A stretch of 64,000 nt of DNA from Alphaproteobacteria bacterium (GTDB lineage: Bacteria > Pseudomonadota > Alphaproteobacteria > JABAAW01), in NCBI GenBank assembly GCA_965216605.1, contig CBDCGG010000002.1, positions 1,159,871 to 1,223,870 on the forward strand, in the 5' to 3' direction. Positions within the stretch are counted from its first letter, which is position 1; every line of letters starts with the position of its first letter. This document shows positions 21,083 through 50,112 of this stretch, piece after piece. Made by a program: the position numbers and the translations under genes. The notes beneath the pieces are model-generated. The model searched no databases. It saw only the letters and a program-made list of their open reading frames with translations, and was not told where the DNA came from.

Positions 21083-21182
21083 TATAACAGGATAGGAATG
21101 TTGGAAATGTTGGGTATGTTGTCCGCGTTCGTTCGCGCTTCCTTACGGGCTCTCTCGCGTGGACAACGGATGGTGCGTGCTT

Positions 21183-21358
21183 ACTACACCCTCGCAAGCC
21201 AAAGGCTTGCGTATGGGGGGTGTGGGGGGACGAAGTTCCCCCGCAAAAACGCGCCGCGAGCGGGCGCGTTAGCGCCTTCTACGCGCGTAGCGCGTAGCCT
21301 CTTAATACTTAAAAGCGCGTTTCGCAGAAACGCGCAAGCAGCCTTGCGGTTTTACGAT
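21183..21358. repeat. Dispersed modular palindromic repeat, copy R1 (modules B+C, partial)
   Basis: ggggggtgtggggggacgaagttcccccgcaaaa...gcgccttctacgcgcgtagcgcgtagcctctta shared with at least 8 other loci. Confidence 0.75.
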
Positions 21359-21415
21359 GGTAAGAAACTTTGGTTTACATCATCGACTTGGGGAGGGTGG
21401 TGTTTTGCGGTTCTT

Positions 21416-22582
21416 TTGTTGGCAGGGGTTGTAATAATAGCAATTGTTTATCTTTCTTTAATTCCTAAAGATGCCGACACCATTAAGTACTTAGAACTTT
21501 ATGCGGTGATTGTCATTGGACTTATGTCTCTTTATATTGCAGGGTCGAGCTTTTGGGCAAAACAAGGCAGCGCGTTTTTTGTGGAATATCAAACAGCAAA
21601 GGATATGAATGTTGTTGACTTGTTTACATCTTCTAATATATTAGAAGATGCTATTGGCAATCCTGCAAACTCTACCATGCCTTATGTAAAAAGAATCTAC
21701 ATACGCAATGAAAAAAACAAACACGAGGCAATTAAAAGAATTTTATTGCAATTGCCAAACGAACAGACTCTTGTTTTAAAAGAATATAAAAAAGCCGACG
21801 CTCTTCTTATAAAGCCCTATGAAGCCAAGGTATTAAAATTAAATGCGGTAACATTTTATTTTAAGGAATATGACTTGACTCATGTAGGTAGAGGAAACTT
21901 TTTTTTTGATGATAATTTTGTGTATACTATTAAGGATGAAGAAATTCTTCGGAGCGGAAAAATTATTGTCGAAACAGCGCAAGGGCAGTCCTGTATTAAA
22001 AATAATAACAAGCCAATTTCATTTTGCAGCGAAAAGAATTTATTAAAACCAAGTAGATCTTTTTTTGGCATAACTTCCAGCGAACAAGAATTGACTTTTG
22101 GTTTTGATGTTATTTGTTCGCTAGAACTTTTAATGAAAAAAAATTTTGCTGACGATAAAATTTTTAATGACAGCATGCAAAAACAAATTTCTGAATATCC
22201 AAAAATAGCTGAAATGTTTTATAGGAGAGAAGGAGAATTGGCAATTCAAATAGTAATAAATTTATATAATAATATATCCTTATCATACTTTTTCCAAGCC
22301 CACAAAAAAAAATACACCTTACCTGTGCATGCAAATATAAAGAAAGAATTTTATGAGGCGTATAAAAAACATAAATTTTTTCCATTGCCAGCGGTGTTTG
22401 AAAAATCAAAAACCCAAAAAAACCGTATGTCTTTTTTTAATTTTTATTCTTTCTGTGATTCATGGGCAGAAAAAAAATGGGGAAAAAATAAAAGTAAAAT
22501 TTATAATTTTCCACAAGGATATTGCAACCAATTTGCTGTTTGCCAAAAAGAAACAAAAATCATCGACGACTTAAAACCTTAG
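21416..22582 (+). CDS. Hypothetical membrane-anchored protein on low-GC islet (island a); start uncertain
   Basis: About 30% GC over about 1.15 kb against a roughly 62% background. N-terminal TM helix (CFAVLLLAGVVIIAIVYLSLIP) and a second helix, then an about 330-aa K/N/F-rich globular part with no recognisable domain. The six-frame ORF start at 21098 runs through repeat R1 and is rejected; a TTG or internal ATG start is likely. Confidence 0.4.
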   Translation: MLAGVVIIAIVYLSLIPKDADTIKYLELYAVIVIGLMSLYIAGSSFWAKQGSAFFVEYQTAKDMNVVDLFTSSNILEDAIGNPANSTMPYVKRIYIRNEKNKHEAIKRILLQLPNEQTLVLKEYKKADALLIKPYEAKVLKLNAVTFYFKEYDLTHVGRGNFFFDDNFVYTIKDEEILRSGKIIVETAQGQSCIKNNNKPISFCSEKNLLKPSRSFFGITSSEQELTFGFDVICSLELLMKKNFADDKIFNDSMQKQISEYPKIAEMFYRREGELAIQIVINLYNNISLSYFFQAHKKKYTLPVHANIKKEFYEAYKKHKFFPLPAVFEKSKTQKNRMSFFNFYSFCDSWAEKKWGKNKSKIYNFPQGYCNQFAVCQKETKIIDDLKP

Positions 22583-29730: not shown

Positions 29731-32121
29731 CTATTTGTTTCCGCTTTTAAGAATAGCATCATAGAAAGTCTTGTCATGGTATTTTATCATTTTAAAAATT
29801 ATCTTTAAATTTTTCTGTAAATGCAAAAAACTTTCTGATGTTTTGGAGTGGCTGTCAGGATGAATGCGATCATTTAAATTCAGCACAATTGTTTCTACAG
29901 AAAATATTTCTGGATTTTTTTTCCAAAGACTACTTAAACTATTTACAAGAGATTTACCTTCTGCTTTCCAAATGTTCACATACATTTCTAGGAATGTCCT
30001 GACCATGTTGGGAGCGCTAATGCATTCGTCTTCGTTTATTACTTCAGCTTCCATAATGTCATGAAGTTTTTTAAACAAATAAGGAAACAAGGCAGAGCTA
30101 TTTTCTATTACCTTTGGCATTTTAATAAGTTTAGTTTTTAAGTTTACATCTTTTTCAAGCATATACAAAGAACATCCGTATTTTTTTGAGTCTTTGTTTA
30201 TTGGAGGTTGTTTAACCCAATAAATAACTCTTTCGAGAAAGTTTAAATCGTGTGTTAAGATAAAAACTTGCCTTGCTGAAGAAATTTTTTTTCTCATAGT
30301 AATAAACATACCATAAAAATTAATAGTATCAAGGCTGGACACAGGATCGTCGATAATAATTCTTGTGTTAGGAATTATAAATTTATTGCCTTGTTCGTCT
30401 GTTCTTTCAAGTGAAAAAAGAAAATACAAAAATACAATTACATTAATTTCCCCTTCACTTAAAGAATCCACACTGGCTTTTTTCTTATTTCTAAATATTT
30501 CATAGCCAGAAATTTTGCCGCCAGCTGCTTTCAGCTGCAACACGTTGTATCCGAAAAAATTATTTAATTCAGTATTAATTTTATTTGAAAATTCTAATAT
30601 ATTATACATTTTTTTTTCATTTTCAACAATACAACTTTCCATTTTTTCCATGGCAACATCAATTGTCTTCAATGGGCTGGTTTCCGAAAAATTATCTTCG
30701 CAAAGAAAGTTTATTTCTTCTATGTTTATACGATTTTTATAAAAATCTTTCATTCCCTCAGCGATTTTATGAGAAATTAGTTTTTTTCCTGCAATATTCA
30801 TTTTTTGTTCAATTTTAAGCTGGTTGTCATTGAATATTAAAATCATTCTATTGATTTTTTCTAATATTTCTTTCAGATACGTTTTGCTTTTATTTAATGT
30901 TTCAATAATAATAGGCGCGACATTTTTCTTTATGTATATTTGATTTTTCTTTGATTGTATTTTTTCTTTAAGATTGTCGATAGCATTCAAATAACCACTT
31001 ATTTTTTCTGAAAAATCAAGCTGAATTTTTTCTATTTCTACTTTTTGCCCTGAATCAAAAAAAGTAAAGTTATCTATATGAATTTTATAATGCGTAATTT
31101 TTTCTTTTTGCTGCTCAAGGCATGTAGAGTCATTTTCTAATTTTTGTATCAAAGCATTTGTGTCTGGATTGAAATGTTTTTTTAATTTATCAATTAATTG
31201 GGATGATATTGTATTTTCGCAAAATTCACATTTCTCTTTTTTGTCAGCGTGAATTTCCAATCCTAATTTTACCCAATTAGATACTGTGCCTTCCATATCC
31301 ATTACCCTTTTGTCGACTTCGCCTTCAGGTATAGAAGACAAGTGTTCTGCCATTTCGTCGTAGTTAATTTCTTCTGGATAGTAAATTTTATACATAGGGT
31401 TTTCTGATTTTCTGTCGATATCTTGCTCAAAATTAATATATTGTGTGTTGTCTAATATTTCGTTTTCTATTTTATCTTTAAAGCTATTTAAATCTCTATT
31501 CACTTTAGATTTTTCATAATTTGCAACATCAAGATTTTTTCCGTATTGCGTGCCTCTGAAAAATGTTTTAATGTTGACGGCTATGTTTTTCATGCACTCT
31601 TCGTAAATATATATTCGGATTTGCTTTAATTTTGCAATTTTTACTTTCAAGCTTCTATTAGCATCTAATAATTTTATTTGTGGCTCTCCTAGCATAATTT
31701 TTTTTATATTCTTCTCCTGAAGATTTTCTGGAAAAAAATTATCTTTAACATACTCTCTATCAAATAAAGCGATATGCTCATCTTCCGTTTCGTTTTTGTC
31801 GATTTCAAATTCAACTGAAAGTCCCATGTCTTTGTAATAATTTTCTTGCTCGTCATTTTTGTAAGAAAGCAAGCGTGAAAAAATTGTTTTTCCAACCCCG
31901 TTTAATCCAAAAATCACGTTGCGGTCTGAAAAATCAAAATTTTTACATGCGTTTTCGTTCCAAGAGAAGTCCCTAAAAACCCATTCAGTATCAGGAGCAC
32001 TACTGTATTTGCTGATAACTCCTTCATCGAGAGTAATTTTTTTTATCTTCCTCAACATTTTCTTTCTCCTCGCAAAGCGTTTTGCTTTCTTAGAAATAGC
32101 ACAAGTTTTTTCTCCTGTCAA
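29731..32121 (-). CDS. RloC-like anticodon nuclease / AAA_13-type ABC ATPase with Zn-hook coiled coil (low-GC island b)
   Basis: 796 aa at about 30% GC. Walker A NVIFGLNGVGKT near the N-terminus, a long coiled-coil insertion with CxxC (KEKCEFCENT) zinc-hook, Walker B/D-loop IIIDDPVSSLD, H-loop ILTHD, then an about 150-aa C-terminal domain (PrrC/RloC-like ACNase region). Confidence 0.6.
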   Translation of the reverse strand: MTGEKTCAISKKAKRFARRKKMLRKIKKITLDEGVISKYSSAPDTEWVFRDFSWNENACKNFDFSDRNVIFGLNGVGKTIFSRLLSYKNDEQENYYKDMGLSVEFEIDKNETEDEHIALFDREYVKDNFFPENLQEKNIKKIMLGEPQIKLLDANRSLKVKIAKLKQIRIYIYEECMKNIAVNIKTFFRGTQYGKNLDVANYEKSKVNRDLNSFKDKIENEILDNTQYINFEQDIDRKSENPMYKIYYPEEINYDEMAEHLSSIPEGEVDKRVMDMEGTVSNWVKLGLEIHADKKEKCEFCENTISSQLIDKLKKHFNPDTNALIQKLENDSTCLEQQKEKITHYKIHIDNFTFFDSGQKVEIEKIQLDFSEKISGYLNAIDNLKEKIQSKKNQIYIKKNVAPIIIETLNKSKTYLKEILEKINRMILIFNDNQLKIEQKMNIAGKKLISHKIAEGMKDFYKNRINIEEINFLCEDNFSETSPLKTIDVAMEKMESCIVENEKKMYNILEFSNKINTELNNFFGYNVLQLKAAGGKISGYEIFRNKKKASVDSLSEGEINVIVFLYFLFSLERTDEQGNKFIIPNTRIIIDDPVSSLDTINFYGMFITMRKKISSARQVFILTHDLNFLERVIYWVKQPPINKDSKKYGCSLYMLEKDVNLKTKLIKMPKVIENSSALFPYLFKKLHDIMEAEVINEDECISAPNMVRTFLEMYVNIWKAEGKSLVNSLSSLWKKNPEIFSVETIVLNLNDRIHPDSHSKTSESFLHLQKNLKIIFKMIKYHDKTFYDAILKSGNK

Positions 32122-38435: not shown

Positions 38436-39611
38436 TTGCGTGCTCGGATAACCTTTGATGAGGAGGCTTTGTCTGCCAATGTTGCGTTGATGCGCGGCGT
38501 TTGCGGAGGTGCGGCGTTACATGCGGTTATCAAGGCGGGTGCTTACGGGTTAGGCGCGGGGTTTGGAGGGTTAGATTGGCTTACGGACAAATTGCTCGCA
38601 TTGGGTTGTAGCGCGTTTGTTTTTGCGGAGTGGGAGGCGGCGGTTTCGGTGAGGGCGCGTCATCCTTCGGTTTCTTGCTTTGCTTTGAACGGAATTGTAG
38701 GGCGCGAGGATGCGGAGGGTTGTTTGGAGCATGGCATTCTGCCTGTTCTCAACACTTTGGATTCGTGGCATTTGTGGCAGGAGGTTTCGGCAAAAATTTC
38801 AGGAGGGATTTCAGGAGGAATTTCAGAAGGTGTTTCAGAAGGAAATGCGCCTTACGCGCTGCATGTAGATACGGGTATGAATCGGTTGGGATTAAGGGAG
38901 GAGGAGGCAAGGGTTGTTGCTGAGAAGTTGCGCGAGGGGGGAGTTATGTATTCTCCGATGTGGTTGATATCTCATTTAGCTTGTGGGGATGATCAGGTAT
39001 CTTCTTACAATTTGGAGCAGTTAGAGAAATTTAAAAAAATATGTCTTTTATTTCCTGATTCGCTCAAGAGTTTTGCTAATTCTGCGGGTTGTTTTTTGGG
39101 GGAGGAGTATCATTTTGATGCGGTTCGGGTGGGGGCTAGTTTGTATGGATTGAATCCTGTTAGGCGGTTTCGAGATGGCGGGGGTTATAGGGAGAGTGAT
39201 AGGGGGAGATTGCGGAATGTTGTTTCTATTGATGCTCCGATTATTCAGGTGCGGGATGTTGGGATTGGGGAGGCTGTGGGTTATGGGTGTCGGTGGGTTG
39301 CTAGGCGAGATAGCAGGATTGCGATTGTTGCTTTTGGGTATGGGGATGGGTATCCGTTTTGTTGTGGGGGTAGTGGGGTATATCAGGAGGGTATTTTGGG
39401 AGGGGGTTGTGTTCGGGTTGTGGGTCGTGTATCGATGGATTTATTGGCGATGGATGTGACGGATTTGGGGGTTGGGTATGGGGTTGGGGATTATGTTGTT
39501 TTGTTGGGGGGGGGGATTAGTGCGGAGCGGATTGCGTGGGGTGCGGGAGATTTGAATTACAATGTTTTGGGGGGTATGGGGAGTAGGGGGTTGGGGAGGG
39601 CTTTGTGTTGA
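38436..39611 (+). CDS. alr: Alanine racemase
   Basis: PLP-Lys region (…AVIKAGAYGLGAG…) and C-terminal beta domain (…GRVSMDLLAMDVTD…). Contains an ISGGISGGISEGVSEGN insertion. Coding strand C-depleted. Confidence 0.7.
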   Translation: MRARITFDEEALSANVALMRGVCGGAALHAVIKAGAYGLGAGFGGLDWLTDKLLALGCSAFVFAEWEAAVSVRARHPSVSCFALNGIVGREDAEGCLEHGILPVLNTLDSWHLWQEVSAKISGGISGGISEGVSEGNAPYALHVDTGMNRLGLREEEARVVAEKLREGGVMYSPMWLISHLACGDDQVSSYNLEQLEKFKKICLLFPDSLKSFANSAGCFLGEEYHFDAVRVGASLYGLNPVRRFRDGGGYRESDRGRLRNVVSIDAPIIQVRDVGIGEAVGYGCRWVARRDSRIAIVAFGYGDGYPFCCGGSGVYQEGILGGGCVRVVGRVSMDLLAMDVTDLGVGYGVGDYVVLLGGGISAERIAWGAGDLNYNVLGGMGSRGLGRALC

Positions 39612-40110
39612 GCGCGCTTGCTTGTGTGTTGAGCGTGTTTGTCTCTGCTTGCTTGCGCTACCTTGCGGGCGCGCTACGCAGAGACAGACACGCGCTTTTT
39701 TGATTAGGGCTGTGCTGTGGATTTTTGTTTTTGTGGTGTGTATCTGGTTTTGTTTGTCTGTTGCGTTCGCGCTTGTGCTTTTTAATGGCACGCGCTTACG
39801 CAACAGACTTGCTTTGTATATTGACGGATGCAAAACATCGTGCGCGTAGCGCACGGGGAGCGCGAGGGAGTAATCCCTCGCAAAAGACCCCGCGTCAGCG
39901 GGGCGCGATAGCGCCTTCTACGCGCGTAGCGCGTAGCCTCTTATTCAAAAGCGCGAGGCTTGCCTCGCGCAAGCTGACTCGTAACATTGTACGGCGATTC
40001 TGTTTTCCGCTCACCTAGAGACAAAAAGAATCGCACGAAGTGCGCCTCTTATTCAAAAGCGCGAGGCTTGCCTCGCGCAAGCTGACTCGCAACGCGACAC
40101 AGTGCTACTA
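39605..40110. repeat. Dispersed modular repeat, copy R6 (largest composite: A+B+C+C)
   Basis: All three modules present. Module C is duplicated (39925-39975 and 40045-40095) with gcgcgaggcttgcctcgcgcaagctgactcg. Confidence 0.8.
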
Positions 40111-40121
40111 TTTTTTAAAAA

Positions 40122-40802
40122 TCATTCAATATCTATTCCTTTTGTTTTTATTTTTTTTGCTAGTTCTTGACCTTTCTCAATTTGTTCTTCATTCAAGGAT
40201 TTTTTTAAATCTTCTTTTTTTTGAATTGCCATTTTATGCCCTGAAGAAGAGGCAAGCAGAAACATCGCATAAGATAGAAGAATGCTTTGTTTAATAGTTC
40301 CTTTCCCACTATAAAAAATGATTCCTAAATTATATTGTGCGTCAGCGCATCCTTGATTTGCAGATTTTTTATACCACTTAAATGCTTCTTTGTAATCCTC
40401 GACTGTTTGCTCCCCTCTTTCATACATTTTGCCTAAATCGTTTTGTGCTTGAGCATGTCCTTTTTTGGCTGCTTTCTCAAGCCAAAAAAACGCTTCGCTA
40501 TTATCGTTTGCTACCCCGTCTTCTGTTTTACTCCTTAAACTTAATTGGTGTTGAGATTCTGAATCACCATCATCTGCACTACGCTTTAGATTTCTTAGTT
40601 GCTTTTTCTTTTCATTAATTCTCTCCTCTTCTTCACGCTTAGAATTATACGAAAGACAAAAACAATAAAGAGCAATAGCAAAAAACACAAAAAAAGCTGG
40701 ATCCTCTTCTAAACCAAGGATTCCAAAAAAAATCGTCAGAGAGCCTGAAATATACATTTCTTGTAAATCTGTTCGAGAATTTATATTTTGTTTGCTATCC
40801 AT
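40122..40802 (-). CDS. Sel1-like repeat (SLR) protein with N-terminal transmembrane helices (low-GC island c, gene 2)
   Basis: At least two Sel1 repeats (…AQNDLGKMYERGEQTVEDYKEAFKWYKKSANQGCADAQYNLGIIFYSGKG…) preceded by two hydrophobic helices. Start MDSKQNI overlaps the upstream gene stop by 8 nt. Confidence 0.6.
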   Translation of the reverse strand: MDSKQNINSRTDLQEMYISGSLTIFFGILGLEEDPAFFVFFAIALYCFCLSYNSKREEEERINEKKKQLRNLKRSADDGDSESQHQLSLRSKTEDGVANDNSEAFFWLEKAAKKGHAQAQNDLGKMYERGEQTVEDYKEAFKWYKKSANQGCADAQYNLGIIFYSGKGTIKQSILLSYAMFLLASSSGHKMAIQKKEDLKKSLNEEQIEKGQELAKKIKTKGIDIE

Positions 40803-41775
40803 TATCGTCCCGAAGATCCATAAGGCTTTTTCCCTTATAATACCAATAATAAGGACCTCTAACATTACTGAGCTCTCGTTCTTTTTTTGTTAAAACTTCT
40901 CCCGCCGCAGCTGATAAAGTCATTTCTCTACCTTCATAAATAATTTTTTTTCTGCTTTTGTTTGTATCGCTTTCTGGGGCAACAGTGCAGGTTGTATTTT
41001 CGTCGTCAAGGAAAATTAATTTTTCCCCATCTTTTATTTCCACCATATTAAAATTAAAATTTTCAATATTTCTTCTTTCTTTTTCTTGCGCGTTGCCGAC
41101 ATTTTTTTTCTCGTCTTCGTTTTCAGCAATGTATTCATTTTTTATTGTAACTGGCTCATGCGCTAAATTTAACAATGCAGGTCGAGCGTCTTCAGGGGAC
41201 ATTTCAAAAAATTCTCTGCTCTTGTTAATTATTTTTTCCTTAAATTTTTCATGCAAATAGTTTTCTGCTTTATTGCAATCTTTCACTTTTATTGCACAGT
41301 CGAATTCAAAACGAAGAGGAACGCCCGTAGCACTAGAAAGAGCGTTTATTCTCTTCTCTACGCTGTCTGTCGTTTTTCCTATCTTGATAAGACCTTTCAT
41401 ACGAGGATTGGTGAGAATATAAACTATTCCTTCTCGTTCGTTTTTCAAGGAGTCTTGCGTCTCTTTTTCTTTACTTTCAAGTCTCTCTTTACGTTGTTGC
41501 AGGATTTCATCTTCGTACAACCAATTCAAAAGCGGTGCAAAACTTCCACGAATCTCTGTGTCGCGAATCACGCTGTAGATGTAATTCGTTAACTCGGTGA
41601 TTTTTCTACTTTCATCTTCGATGTCTCCAAATTCATACCTTACGGCTCGTTCACCATCTAAAACCACGCAAGTATGGTTTATATTCTCTTTGTGATAAAG
41701 CCTTGCACCCACTGGAATTTTCAATCCATCGAAGGTGAAGATTTTTTTGGTGGGTGTTTTTTCTATTTCAGTCAT
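40795..41775 (-). CDS. T5orf172 (MUG113, GIY-YIG-like) domain protein with flanking DUF4357-like modules (low-GC island c, gene 1)
   Basis: Central motif EGIVYILTNPRMKGLIKIGKTTDSVEKRINALSSATGVPLRFEFD. The N- and C-terminal about 50-aa modules resemble each other (…FDGLKIPVGARLYHKEN…VRYEFGDI / …IKDGEKLIFLDDEN…IIYEGREMTLSAAAGEVL…). Confidence 0.6.
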   Translation of the reverse strand: MTEIEKTPTKKIFTFDGLKIPVGARLYHKENINHTCVVLDGERAVRYEFGDIEDESRKITELTNYIYSVIRDTEIRGSFAPLLNWLYEDEILQQRKERLESKEKETQDSLKNEREGIVYILTNPRMKGLIKIGKTTDSVEKRINALSSATGVPLRFEFDCAIKVKDCNKAENYLHEKFKEKIINKSREFFEMSPEDARPALLNLAHEPVTIKNEYIAENEDEKKNVGNAQEKERRNIENFNFNMVEIKDGEKLIFLDDENTTCTVAPESDTNKSRKKIIYEGREMTLSAAAGEVLTKKERELSNVRGPYYWYYKGKSLMDLRDDNG

Positions 41776-41807
41776 TCCCCATCCCCTCTTGTGTTAGGTT
41801 GCGTTTT

Positions 41808-42158
41808 CTATTTGCTGATGAAGACTTCTGCGGCGAAAATCATGGTAGGTCCCCAAAATGCCATGAACGCCACCCCCATATAAAACATTCGCTGAAAATT
41901 GCGTGTCTCAGTACGCATCTCCTTCATCTCCGCACGCATCTCCATGCGTAGCTCCCTGATCTCTGCGCGTAGCTCCTTGATGTCAGACTTGGTCGCAACC
42001 CCATCCAACAAGACATCTTGCAAAACCCTCACATGCGCACGAGCTTGCCTATCGCTTACACCCCCCTTGCGTAAAGTGTCCGCATGCTTCTGCGTATCTA
42101 AAAGTGCCATTTTCCTTTTCTCCCTTCTCCTTACAGCATTCCCCCATCGAGTTTCCAT
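41808..42158 (-). CDS. Small coiled-coil protein with C-terminal TM helix (DUF1640-like)
   Basis: …KSDIKELRAEIRELRMEMRAEMKEMRTETRN… then a hydrophobic tail. Native GC. Start may be the internal Met (MALLDTQ). Confidence 0.35.
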   Translation of the reverse strand: METRWGNAVRRREKRKMALLDTQKHADTLRKGGVSDRQARAHVRVLQDVLLDGVATKSDIKELRAEIRELRMEMRAEMKEMRTETRNFQRMFYMGVAFMAFWGPTMIFAAEVFISK

Positions 42159-42281
42159 CCTCCCTCACAAACACGAGAGAGTCAAGACAAATTCTCCATC
42201 TTTTTATTTTTGTTGTCTTTTTTATCTTCCCATCCCGCGAATCCGTTGCAATTCTCTCACTTCGCGTCTAGGGTTGGCTTT

Positions 42282-43091
42282 ATGTTGTTGCGTCTCTTCC
42301 GCTTCTTTCTTTTTCTTCTTCTGCCCGTCGGGGTCGTGGGGAGATCTCTGTTGCGCTTCCTAGAGACGCTCGGCAGAGTTACCGCCTTCGGAGCCCTCTC
42401 GCTCTCGCATCTCTTCCGCCCCCCGCTCTACTTCGAGCAAATCCGCAAACAACTGATAGAAACAGGATACTACTCGCTGCCCGTCGTCGCCCTCACGGTC
42501 ACCTTCTCAGGGATGGTGCTCGTCCTCCAATCCTACGCGGGCTTCCAAAACGCCTTCGCAAGCCAAGCCATTCCCGAACTCGTCGTGCTAGCTATCACAC
42601 GAGAACTCGCCCCCGTCCTCAGCGGACTCATGGTCGCAGGTAGAGTGGGCGGCGCCATGGCAGCCGAAATCGCAACTATGCGCGTCAGCGAACAAATCGA
42701 CGCCCTAGAAACCCTCTCCGCCAATCCCTATAAGTATCTGATCGTTCCCCGATTGCTAGCAGGCGCGCTCTGCCTGCCGTTGCTCGTGGTGATCGGAGAC
42801 TCGCTGGGAATTTTGGGCGGTACCCTGATCGCCGTCTATAAACTGGGCTTCAATGCCGATCTCTATCTGCAATACACGCGCGCCGCCTTCGACCTCATCG
42901 GCTTCCTCTCCGGCGTGTGTAAAGCCTTCGTCTTCGGATTGCTCATCGCGCTCCTTAGCTGCTACAACGGATTCCACGCAACCGGCGGAGCGCAAGGCGT
43001 AGGACGAGCAACCACAAATGCCGTCGTTAGCTCCTCGATAGCTATCCTAGTCTTCAACTATTTCCTGACCGAACTCTTCTTCGCTCGATAG
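42282..43091 (+). CDS. mlaE: Phospholipid ABC transporter permease MlaE
   Basis: MlaE/Ttg2B-family permease (…ETGYYSLPVVALTVTFSGMVLVLQSY…). Start at MLLRL. Confidence 0.75.
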   Translation: MLLRLFRFFLFLLLPVGVVGRSLLRFLETLGRVTAFGALSLSHLFRPPLYFEQIRKQLIETGYYSLPVVALTVTFSGMVLVLQSYAGFQNAFASQAIPELVVLAITRELAPVLSGLMVAGRVGGAMAAEIATMRVSEQIDALETLSANPYKYLIVPRLLAGALCLPLLVVIGDSLGILGGTLIAVYKLGFNADLYLQYTRAAFDLIGFLSGVCKAFVFGLLIALLSCYNGFHATGGAQGVGRATTNAVVSSSIAILVFNYFLTELFFAR

Positions 43092-48843: not shown

Positions 48844-50112
48844 TTACTCCTCATTCGCTTTTTTAATAGCGGCTACAATAGCAATTTTGGTCGCGTGAAC
48901 CCATTCGTGTCTATTGTCAAAGTTGGCATGAATATATTTTTCAATTTCTCTATATTTTTTTGTTTTGAGGGAATATTCTAACTTATACGCTCGATCGGGA
49001 TCGGATGTTTGATAGGAATTCAGTCGTTGTGTTACATCTCTTGCAATGCCAACTTTATAAATATCAGGAAAAGCAGGATTCGATATAATGTAGATATAAC
49101 CTGAATCTCTATCGACGGTGGTAGTATCGGTTGGCTTTGGCGGATCAGTAAGAAAATTAGGCTCTTTTCTAAAAATATCGGTAGGAACTTCTTTATCTAA
49201 TCGCGCCCTTATAAAATCAAACGCTTTCGCTCCTACATCTATGCCTATCCATTCTCGCCCTAATTTCTCGGCTGCCACACAAGTTGTAGCGCAGCCACAA
49301 AACGGATCCAACACCATGTCCCCCTCGTTGCTACTTGTTTTTATAATGCGTTCCATTAACGCAAGCGGTTTTTGAGTTCGGTAACCTGTTTTTTCGTCGG
49401 CTATGCCTTGAATAAATGGAATTTTAAAAACATTGTCTGATTTTCCTTCTTTAAGATACGCTTTACGAACTACCCCGTTCTTATCATGGTATGTTTTAAA
49501 TTTTTGACCCTCCTCGTCTGTCTTGTTGTAGCGTTTAACAGACTTCTCATCATACTTAAAAAAAGTTTCTTTATAGTTAAAGATGTATTTATCTCCTTTC
49601 GTATAGAAAAAAATGTTGTCATAATTTTTAGGGTAATTGACCTTTCCTCCATGTGGCTTGAAATAATGCCAGATAATTTCATTTTTAAACGATTTTTCTC
49701 CAAAAGCTATATCCAATATAATCTTAAGATAATGGCTCATTGTTTGATCGCAATGCAGATACAAACTTCCAGTATCTTTTAATACTCGATGGCATTCAAT
49801 AAGTCGTATAGCCATATAAATTAAATAACAGTAATTCATTTCACTGCTAAACTGCTTTACTTCGCAAAGGTATTGAAAAAGCTTAGGGTTTTCAAATTCG
49901 ATGAATTTCACCCATTCATCCTTAATATCTTCTTTTCTAAATATATCCTTAAACCCAGCTCCCTGAGCACTGCTTTCAATTGGCGAGACATATTCTTCGT
50001 TGGTGTTAAACGGCGGGTCAAGATAAATAAGGTCGATGCAATCTGAATTGATACCCTCAAGAATATCAAGGTTATCCCTGCAGAAAATTGTACGAGACTT
50101 TACATTAAGCAT
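48844..50112 (-). CDS. Orphan beta-class N6-adenine DNA methyltransferase fused to C-terminal T5orf172/GIY-YIG-like domain (low-GC island d)
   Basis: Motif IV IDLIYLDPPFN precedes motif I VLDPFCGCATTCVAAEKLGREWIGID (beta-class order). C-terminal SGYIYIISNPAFPDIYKVGIARDVTQRLNSYQTSDP...NRHEWVHA is a T5orf172 motif. About 32% GC. No restriction-enzyme neighbour. Confidence 0.7.
   Translation of the reverse strand: MLNVKSRTIFCRDNLDILEGINSDCIDLIYLDPPFNTNEEYVSPIESSAQGAGFKDIFRKEDIKDEWVKFIEFENPKLFQYLCEVKQFSSEMNYCYLIYMAIRLIECHRVLKDTGSLYLHCDQTMSHYLKIILDIAFGEKSFKNEIIWHYFKPHGGKVNYPKNYDNIFFYTKGDKYIFNYKETFFKYDEKSVKRYNKTDEEGQKFKTYHDKNGVVRKAYLKEGKSDNVFKIPFIQGIADEKTGYRTQKPLALMERIIKTSSNEGDMVLDPFCGCATTCVAAEKLGREWIGIDVGAKAFDFIRARLDKEVPTDIFRKEPNFLTDPPKPTDTTTVDRDSGYIYIISNPAFPDIYKVGIARDVTQRLNSYQTSDPDRAYKLEYSLKTKKYREIEKYIHANFDNRHEWVHATKIAIVAAIKKANEE

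Follow-up and report, generated by a model that had tools for sequence, protein, structure and literature searches.

Gene content of the low-GC pair

We analyzed a pair of low-GC genes of an alphaproteobacterium (assembly GCA_965216605.1) lying in positions 1,159,871 to 1,223,870 of contig CBDCGG010000002.1. This whole stretch of 64,000 nucleotides (nt) is called the window, and its own numbering is used throughout. A preliminary description of this DNA had proposed that positions 40122-41775 hold a candidate defence pair, i.e. a T5orf172 protein and a membrane-anchored Sel1-repeat protein. Both open reading frames (ORFs) were found again at these coordinates and on the same strand, the minus strand: gene 1 at 40795-41775 and gene 2, taken as the longest ORF, at 40122-40865. 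Gene 1 encodes a soluble protein of 326 amino acids (aa), the size already given for it, which is a predicted restriction-type nuclease of the PDC-S57 family. Gene 2 encodes a protein with Sel1 repeats. As detailed below, the two genes are not a conserved two-gene defence system; they sit in a cassette-like locus, behind a small native ORF and in front of a hairpin repeat, and part of this locus is a recombination mosaic.

The composition and the expression signals of the locus were examined. The guanine-cytosine (GC) content of 40122-41775 is 35.2% (36.5% in gene 1 and 33.8% in gene 2), which corrects the value of 31% given earlier; the flanks range from 50 to 56%. The repeat said to adjoin the pair is real. 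It is a direct repeat of 71 nt with two copies in the window, which carry a terminator-like hairpin on the minus, i.e. coding, strand. Copy 1 (40044-40114) ends 8 nt from the gene 2 stop and contains the hairpin GCGCGAGGCAAGCCTCGCGC + TTTTGAATAA at positions 40078-40059 of the minus strand; copy 2 (39936-40006), with its hairpin, belongs to the downstream flank, which is conserved at the slot. A terminator scan of 39600-42400 gave a strong minus-strand site at 40078-40059 and no terminator-like site on this strand between 42158 and 40122. The hairpin at 40078-40059 is likely the end of the transcription unit. On the minus strand the small ORF is separated from gene 1 by 32 nt and gene 1 from gene 2 by 37 nt (with the gene 2 start at 40757), and genes 1 and 2 are probably co-transcribed. 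A sigma-70 scan gave no convincing promoter 5' of gene 1 or of the small ORF (1 site, where 4 are expected by chance). No integrase, transposase or tRNA was found near the pair, in agreement with the earlier remark that mobility genes are absent, and no restriction-modification (R-M) gene lies within 6 kb of it in the window. The three genes are also flanked by a T-rich imperfect direct repeat of 34 nt (40126-40159 and 42182-42215, with 71% identity), judged to be a low-complexity chance match. Other imperfect direct repeats, G/T-rich and of the GGGGTTGGGG type with 12- and 107-nt spacing, are found at 39461-39610, at the 3' end of the alanine racemase ORF.

Gene 1 was compared with domain and defence-gene profiles. 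It matches Pfam T5orf172 (PF10544; 2e-18, residues 116-198, 67.2 bits for a cut-off of 20) and MUG113 (PF13455; 1e-15, 58.4 bits for a cut-off of 22.3), so that the T5orf172/MUG113 motif first recognized in the letters passes the profile check. In PADLOC, the PDC-S57 model PDLC05041 aligns to residues 113-323 over profile positions 3-204 of 212 (6.3e-68), and PDLC05043 matches with 6.9e-49. The preliminary description, which knew of no name for the pairing, overlooked that the family of gene 1 is already catalogued, as the single-gene candidate PDC-S57 of PADLOC. The PADLOC PD-Lambda-1 models match the nuclease core only (1e-10, profile positions 331-478 of 496), and PHROG families match gene 1 with 2.8e-27 at best. 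Gene 1 has no hydrophobic segment (maximum Kyte-Doolittle score, KD(19), of 0.66) and no match to DUF4041 at E<=1. The T5orf172 catalytic core, of the GIY-YIG superfamily, covers residues 113-200 (41176-41439, minus strand) according to the Pfam and PADLOC coordinates. Five residues, Y119, K131, G133, R142 and E188, are invariant across an alignment of 33 sequences (A1) and are all kept in gene 1; by analogy (PMC10448857) they would be of catalytic type, and gene 1 is presumably an active nuclease.

Typical PDC-S57 members have about 200-210 aa and are composed of a T5orf172 core and one C-terminal module; the PDC-S57 model matches one of them, P0015, with 5e-76. Gene 1 has an extra N-terminal module, which was found in only 5 of 5.8 billion protein clusters (the P0001-P0005 clade), and a metagenome scan for further members of this clade found none. 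Two proteins of the clade, P0004 and P0005, have 222 aa and are without the C-terminal module, while P0003 and the typical family members share the end point of gene 1. Gene 1 is a rare architectural variant of PDC-S57, in the order module, T5orf172 core, module, and represents a modest addition to this family.

The N-terminal module (residues 11-100; 41476-41745, minus strand) is a duplicate of the C-terminal one (residues 235-322; 40810-41073, minus strand). With hhalign, residues 11-100 align to the C-terminal modules of the family over 82 columns, with probabilities of 98.2-98.7% and E-values of 6e-14 to 4.5e-16. The preliminary description was therefore right in seeing two similar modules around the core, although it made them about 50 aa long instead of about 88, and its comparison with DUF4357 does not hold. 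Pfam RAMA, DUF4357 and SAND were without match, for 33 family members searched at E<=1 and for five isolated modules searched at E<=10 against any Pfam model. By sequence profile, the sole PDB match was Beclin, which is spurious. Foldseek was uninformative with the whole gene 1 protein, and the fold result was obtained with the module modelled alone. The AlphaFold2 (AF2) model of the isolated C-terminal module (pLDDT 86, pTM 0.76) has a SAND/RAMA-like fold: its best PDB match is 7ydw_B, an MPND-DNA complex (probability 0.98, TM-score 0.53/0.55, E 0.04), and the next ones are 7ydt_A (MPND apo) and then the SAND domain 1oqj. We take MPND to be the JAB-peptidase MYSM1 paralogue that, according to PMC4738411, carries RAMA. 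With no Pfam match at E<=10 and a Foldseek E-value of 0.04, membership of the modules in RAMA is that of a candidate only. Binding to DNA is their most likely role, possibly together with recognition of how this DNA is modified.

A search with the module alone in 1.84 billion representatives gave 206 proteins. Pfam scans of 10 module-bearing proteins identified T5orf172 proteins with two to four tandem copies, one protein combining HARE-HTH and T5orf172, and one GmrSD protein with a C-terminal module. P0241, P0246, P0316 and others of this search show the range of these contexts, which includes the module alone in proteins of 80-150 aa.

Gene 2 (40122-40757, minus strand) has 211 aa from the start that it shares with the sister genome OZ244186.1; an alternative start at 40802 gives 226 aa, and the longest ORF has 247 aa. 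Its layout is as previously reported, two hydrophobic segments and then Sel1 repeats. The two segments form a hydrophobic hairpin (40650-40757, minus strand; residues 37-52 and 55-72 of the 247-aa ORF), which is split by LEEDP and followed by a linker rich in K/R (9 of them). The Sel1-repeat domain (40143-40592, minus strand) matches Pfam Sel1 (PF08238) in three stretches (1.3e-23, 83 bits for a cut-off of 30.7). A MerG-like NCBIfam family aligns to residues 92-241 below cut-off, and no PADLOC model matches gene 2. As the K/R-rich linker follows the hairpin, the positive-inside rule predicts that the Sel1 domain is cytoplasmic. The orthologue of gene 2, P0121, is 93% identical and begins MYISG; the two differ by 14 non-synonymous and 7 synonymous changes (pN/pS about 0.5). 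Relatives of gene 2 outside the clade bear signal peptides in place of the hairpin. Among the relatives of gene 2 as a whole, one protein, P0147 (380 aa), associates TIR domains with Sel1 repeats and is another effector + Sel1 architecture.

The choice of the gene 2 start bears on the translational coupling that had been deduced from an 8-nt overlap between the two genes. This overlap needs ATG 40802; in the sister genome this ATG lies in the terminal part of gene 1, in frame with it, and a TAA comes next. Both genomes share ATG 40757 (MYISG) as a start, and with it the spacer measures 37 nt. Since the overlap hangs on the start that is chosen, coupling is not established.

Distribution of the pair and of its two families

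We then considered whether T5orf172 and Sel1 genes are neighbours elsewhere. A scan of species-representative genomes gave at least 582 relatives of gene 1, in many phyla. Genome loci were taken as the best 80 of each scan; for gene 1, 79 independent loci of PDC-S57 type were kept, with flanks of 6 kb on both sides. Sel1 regions were detected by a hidden Markov model built from gene 2 relatives, which is sensitive enough to pick up Sel1 in the fusion proteins described below, where it is divergent. Within these flanks none of the 79 loci contains a Sel1-like ORF, even at E<1. Sel1 as a separate gene is likewise absent from the 65 viral loci, in which one fusion protein only was detected, and no T5orf172 ORF is present at the 80 loci of gene 2 relatives (337 kb). 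The nearest full-length relative of gene 2 outside the clade is located in an island with integrase, PIN-VapB and transposase genes, and without a T5orf172 gene.

The pair was otherwise found in one genome only, the sister OZ244186.1 (loci L001/L003), which is 93-100% identical over gene 2, the C-terminal module and the flanks. At this level of identity, and in the same lineage, it is not an independent observation. The next closest relative, L002, has at the same locus a gene 1 homologue that is 60% identical; there GC-rich repeats come directly after the T5orf172 stop, the end of dnaB is next, and no Sel1 gene is present. The repeat downstream is the same on the contigs L091 and L092. Conservation of the two genes as neighbours had been proposed as the test of a T5orf172 + membrane Sel1 system, and the proposal did not survive it. 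In the literature, no publication was found that joins T5orf172 with Sel1, nor any that names PDC-S57.

The recurrence of T5orf172 proteins in defence islands, also put forward earlier, finds some support: gene 1 belongs to the PDC-S57 candidate family, and 27 of the 79 independent loci have an R-M-type gene at 1.5 kb or less. These genes include ResIII, GmrSD/HNH, Eco57I/MmeI-like, EcoRI-like methyltransferase and N6_N4 methyltransferase types. Many of them are only 4-27 nt away and on the same strand as the T5orf172 gene. At six loci (L007, L016, L020, L054, L070 and L081) a PDC-S57-type T5orf172 gene has an EcoRI-like adenine methylase 4-18 nt 3' of it in the same direction, and in four cases a GmrSD_N+HNH gene comes next. 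The T5orf172-methylase arrangement looks like an R-M operon in which T5orf172 is the nuclease. Full-length relatives of gene 1 are also present on about 14 IMG/VR contigs.

A second T5orf172 domain is encoded in the window itself. The ORF at 48844-50112 (minus strand, 422 aa), in an islet of 36% GC, is an N6_N4 methyltransferase (6.6e-46) fused to a C-terminal T5orf172 domain (5.5e-11), the latter being 28% identical to the core of gene 1. At this site the sister genome (L001) has an unrelated methyltransferase and a His-Me nuclease, which makes it a second variable R-M hotspot.

T5orf172 and Sel1 do occur together in single proteins. About 20 of the 120 listed T5orf172 relatives are annotated with Sel1 in the same polypeptide; eight of these fusions were re-scanned, of which five are above the Sel1 gathering score and one above that of TPR_1. 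The T5orf172-Sel1/TPR fusions (e.g. P0057, P0061, P0093, P0094, P0114 and P0116), mostly from gut and Bacteroidota-type contigs, contain the same two domain types as the pair, and their T5orf172 core matches the PDC-S57 models with 4e-24 to 4e-26. They differ from the pair in being one polypeptide, without transmembrane segment and without reader module. Their Sel1 part is also far more divergent from gene 2, with 17-60 bits compared to 316 bits for generic gene 2 relatives. Three fusions have as neighbours, in variable islets, a gene with the SduA_C domain of Shedu, an integrase/resolvase and a Fic gene, respectively. No publication on such fusions was found in the literature.

The cargo slot and its mosaic tract

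The small native ORF lies immediately 5' of gene 1 (41808-42110, minus strand). It has 100 aa from ATG 42110, the start used in the database entry P0390 (the longest ORF extends to 42158). Its product is a CCDC90-like/DUF1640-like coiled coil with ELRAEM heptads (Pfam CCDC90-like 2e-5, below cut-off) and a C-terminal transmembrane segment (KD(19) of 1.71 at residues 96-114), and it has no PADLOC match. With a GC content of 50%, and of 58% at third codon positions, this ORF is host-like. Only five homologues were found in 5.8 billion clusters, all of them at this locus; the copies in L001, L002, L091, L092, L238 and L239 are 47-63% identical to that of the window. The number of ELRAEM(K/Q) heptads is about 3 in the window and in L001 and about 14 in L002, L091 and L092, the neighbouring mlaE being mostly 92-98% identical.

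Between the small ORF and gene 1 is a spacer of 32 nt (41776-41807, minus strand) with the Shine-Dalgarno-like sequence AGAGGGGA. An alignment of the window with the same six relatives shows that the spacer (TAG AAAACGCA.CCTA.C.CAAGAGGGGATGG...) is kept up to the ATG of the cargo irrespective of what the cargo is, and in relatives the small ORF is 5' of every cargo type. In L238, which comes from the same sample as L001, the small ORF and 33 nt are followed by an unrelated gene of 305 aa (6149-7066, GC 28%), without Pfam or PADLOC match, and then by the hairpin repeat, alr and dnaB. In L239, the small ORF and 33 nt precede another unrelated gene (6430-6582, cut by the contig end). In L091 and L092, gene 1 is represented by the 222-aa versions without C-terminal module. 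Close relatives have in total at least three unrelated low-GC cargo genes between the small ORF and the hairpin repeat.

The small ORF was considered as a specific partner of the nuclease, since it precedes T5orf172 at each of the five loci with the N-terminal module and falls within the divergent tract described below, but it also precedes the unrelated cargos of L238 and L239. Moreover it exists as two 3' alleles which are independent of the cargo type. Because the small ORF and the spacer stand before unrelated cargos, and because the alleles assort independently, it is to be regarded as a flank and not as a specific partner; it is probably the flank and promoter donor of the slot. On the 9.5-kb contig of L002 (ERZ26869290 ctg271434), three units of small ORF + T5orf172 are arranged in direct and inverted orientation with mlaE and dnaB fragments between them, which is probably a long-read assembly artefact.

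Comparison with the sister genome delimits a mosaic tract at 41050-42130, which comprises the small ORF and the 5' two-thirds of gene 1. Sliding identity to L001 is 49-82% in this tract, compared to 93-100% in the flanks, gene 2 and the C-terminal module. The breakpoint falls inside gene 1, whose C-terminal module is 91% identical between the two genomes and whose core is only 64% identical. The synonymous divergence (dS) is 0.48-2.7 in the tract, 0.13 in the C-terminal module and 0.056 in gene 2, and the dN/dS of gene 1 is 0.13-0.5. Positive selection was considered as the origin of the divergent tract and rejected, since dS itself is up 4- to 20-fold and dN/dS is low. This combination indicates an old allele imported by recombination.

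Two other stretches of the window may be mentioned. The first (29731-32121, minus strand), with 28-30% GC and located between housekeeping genes, encodes a 796-aa AAA_13 ATPase which matches the PADLOC candidate PDC-S06 with 4e-87. The second (21098-22582, plus strand, 40-41% GC) is an ORF of 494 aa without Pfam or PADLOC match.

Possible roles of the nuclease and of the Sel1 protein

We lean towards a stand-alone cassette for a restriction-type nuclease in a hypervariable slot, where the Sel1 protein is a lineage-specific, non-obligate accessory or a passenger. The slot would be bounded by the small ORF and its 32-nt spacer on the 5' side and by the hairpin repeat before alr on the 3' side, low-GC cargos being swapped between the two. 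The cargo genes have a foreign composition (34-36% GC, compared to 50-56% in the flanks), which speaks for this reading. The reader modules would bring the enzyme to its target, probably DNA of foreign origin or with a different modification, and the T5orf172 core would then cut it; gene 1 may in this way have an anti-phage role. The Sel1 protein could serve the nuclease as an optional adaptor or regulator, or could be a passenger unrelated to it.

The closest known system is the PDC-S57 family. The PDCs, 145 candidates in all, derive from genes that were located inside loci of BREX, DISARM or type I R-M systems (Payne et al., bioRxiv 10.1101/2024.01.29.577857). Gene 1 shares with PDC-S57 the core and the C-terminal module of about 88 aa, i.e. 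nearly the whole 212-position profile; unlike it, gene 1 has the extra N-terminal module, is located outside BREX, DISARM and R-M loci, and has a membrane Sel1 protein next to it. The modules recall RAMA and HARE-HTH, reader domains that are reported in fusions with T5orf172 and with further R-M nucleases (Iyer, Zhang & Aravind 2016; PMC4738411): here too a small alpha+beta module is carried by T5orf172 and GmrSD, co-occurs with HARE-HTH and has MPND as the closest fold, with the difference that it matches no Pfam profile and is linked to RAMA by a Foldseek E-value of 0.04. Compared with Type II R-M systems, no methyltransferase is adjacent to gene 1, the nearest being the T5orf172-fused one at 48844-50112.

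Several points weigh against the stand-alone cassette. The defence role of PDC-S57 is that of a candidate, one among the 145. As the alternative cargos have no PADLOC or Pfam match, the slot is a defence hotspot by supposition only. The SAND/RAMA-like assignment of the modules is based on similarity of a modelled fold. No cognate methyltransferase is adjacent by which self-DNA would escape cleavage. The two ORFs are nearly continuous and have low GC and a terminator in common, which argues that the Sel1 protein is possibly not a mere passenger. Finally, the existence of T5orf172-Sel1/TPR fusions elsewhere makes a functional affinity of the two domain types plausible.

Among the alternatives, the least improbable is a SNIPE-like system acting in trans. 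SNIPE (PD-lambda-1) is a membrane-anchored GIY-YIG-type nuclease which cuts phage DNA at injection, and which becomes toxic through cleavage of self-DNA when its transmembrane segment is removed (PMC13190303). At the present locus, the Sel1 protein, and possibly that of the small ORF, would tether or sequester the nuclease at the inner membrane, so that the chromosome is spared and entering DNA is cut. The resemblance extends to the related C-terminal nuclease core, on which SNIPE models match gene 1, and to a putative DNA-binding region; on either side of gene 1 a membrane protein is predicted, with the Sel1 domain presumably on the cytoplasmic side. The three genes are on one strand, with gaps of 32 and 37 nt and one terminator. 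Fusions of T5orf172 with Sel1/TPR pass the Pfam cut-offs in 6 of 8 cases, and the TIR-Sel1 protein offers a comparable association among gene 2 relatives. The missing methyltransferase also counts here, since another device for self-protection is then needed. On the other hand, gene 1 lacks both the N-terminal transmembrane anchor and the central DUF4041 of SNIPE, and the membrane link would be a putative one provided in trans. The Sel1 gene is missing in L002-type relatives and at the 79 + 65 other loci, and the gene 2 relatives at 80 loci have no T5orf172 ORF beside them. The small ORF also flanks unrelated cargos and its alleles assort independently, the known fusions have neither transmembrane segment nor reader module, and gene 2 is without PADLOC match. 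We consider tethering in trans rather unlikely. We give the same doubtful standing to the broader claim that the nuclease and the Sel1 protein are one functional unit, either as a complex or as a read-through product of about 550 aa, in which the Sel1 repeats would both keep the nuclease at the inner membrane and control when it is active.

The junction of the two genes raises a further alternative, namely that they are a single gene which was recently split, or which is expressed by recoding, or which an assembly error interrupts. Its product would have about 550 aa, in the order reader, T5orf172, reader, transmembrane hairpin and Sel1, and would be a nuclease anchored in the membrane by its C-terminal part. 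A single T (40804, minus strand), absent in the sister genome, puts genes 1 and 2 in different frames, and its removal in silico gives one ORF of 550 codons with no internal stop. In the sister genome both ORFs share one frame, with a single TAA (codon 333 of 555) between them; the T and the TAA are nearly the sole differences in a junction stretch of 120 nt that is 98% identical. The single-protein fusions of T5orf172 with Sel1 found elsewhere also speak for a single gene. An in-frame downstream gene with a stop-free spacer of 10 codons is nevertheless expected by chance with a frequency of about 0.14, which is not small, and a neutral order of events fits as well: the T was inserted first, and the disused TAA then drifted to CAA. 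P0003 and the typical members of the family end where gene 1 ends. No database protein joins the C-terminal module with Sel1: the listed relatives that bear Sel1 match the T5orf172 core only, and none of the 10 scanned module proteins has Sel1. We regard a single gene as quite improbable.

Equally hard to favour is a selfish origin, in which gene 1 would be a free-standing or domesticated homing-type endonuclease of the T5orf172 group, driving gene conversion at this site next to an unrelated Sel1 gene. Phage T5orf172 homing endonuclease genes carry DNA-binding domains in several copies and exchange domains through recombination (PMC10448857), and gene 1 resembles them in its core, of a GIY-YIG subfamily, in its repeated modules and in the domain-level recombination attested by the breakpoint between the 64% identical core and the 91% identical C-terminal module. 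The PHROG matches and the relatives on IMG/VR contigs point in the same direction. However, the phage genes have zinc-finger domains of CapR, DUF723 or DUF4397 type and reside in phage genomes, whereas gene 1 has SAND/RAMA-like modules and occupies a chromosomal slot, an intergenic site flanked by housekeeping genes, where no phage, intron or intein is in evidence. Relatives of gene 1 are found inside R-M operons. Other alleles of the slot are not empty sites; they hold unrelated genes that are not nuclease-like, which is better accounted for by hotspot turnover. Finally, that the cassette is a remnant in decay which no longer functions, as the shortened P0004 and P0005, the frameshift or stop at the junction and the pN/pS of gene 2 could suggest, is very improbable, for the two ORFs are intact, none of the family-invariant residues is lost, the dN/dS of gene 1 indicates purifying selection and a good Shine-Dalgarno-like sequence precedes it.

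If the stand-alone cassette is the correct reading, the locus contributes little more than a rare architecture for a defence candidate that is already catalogued. If the nuclease and the Sel1 protein are one unit, they would constitute a SNIPE-like defence that cuts at entry but is built from different parts, and would be related to the T5orf172-Sel1/TPR fusions. Tethering or gating of the nuclease by Sel1 would extend the principle of SNIPE, i.e. membrane confinement as a means of discriminating self from non-self, to a design in two parts. Of use to specialists are the T5orf172-Sel1/TPR fusions, which form a sizeable family, and the module of about 88 aa, which is widespread, is found in one to four copies in T5orf172 and GmrSD nucleases, has no profile and merits one. 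The locus itself is a clean example of short low-GC cassettes swapped behind a fixed promoter-proximal ORF and a ribosome-binding spacer.

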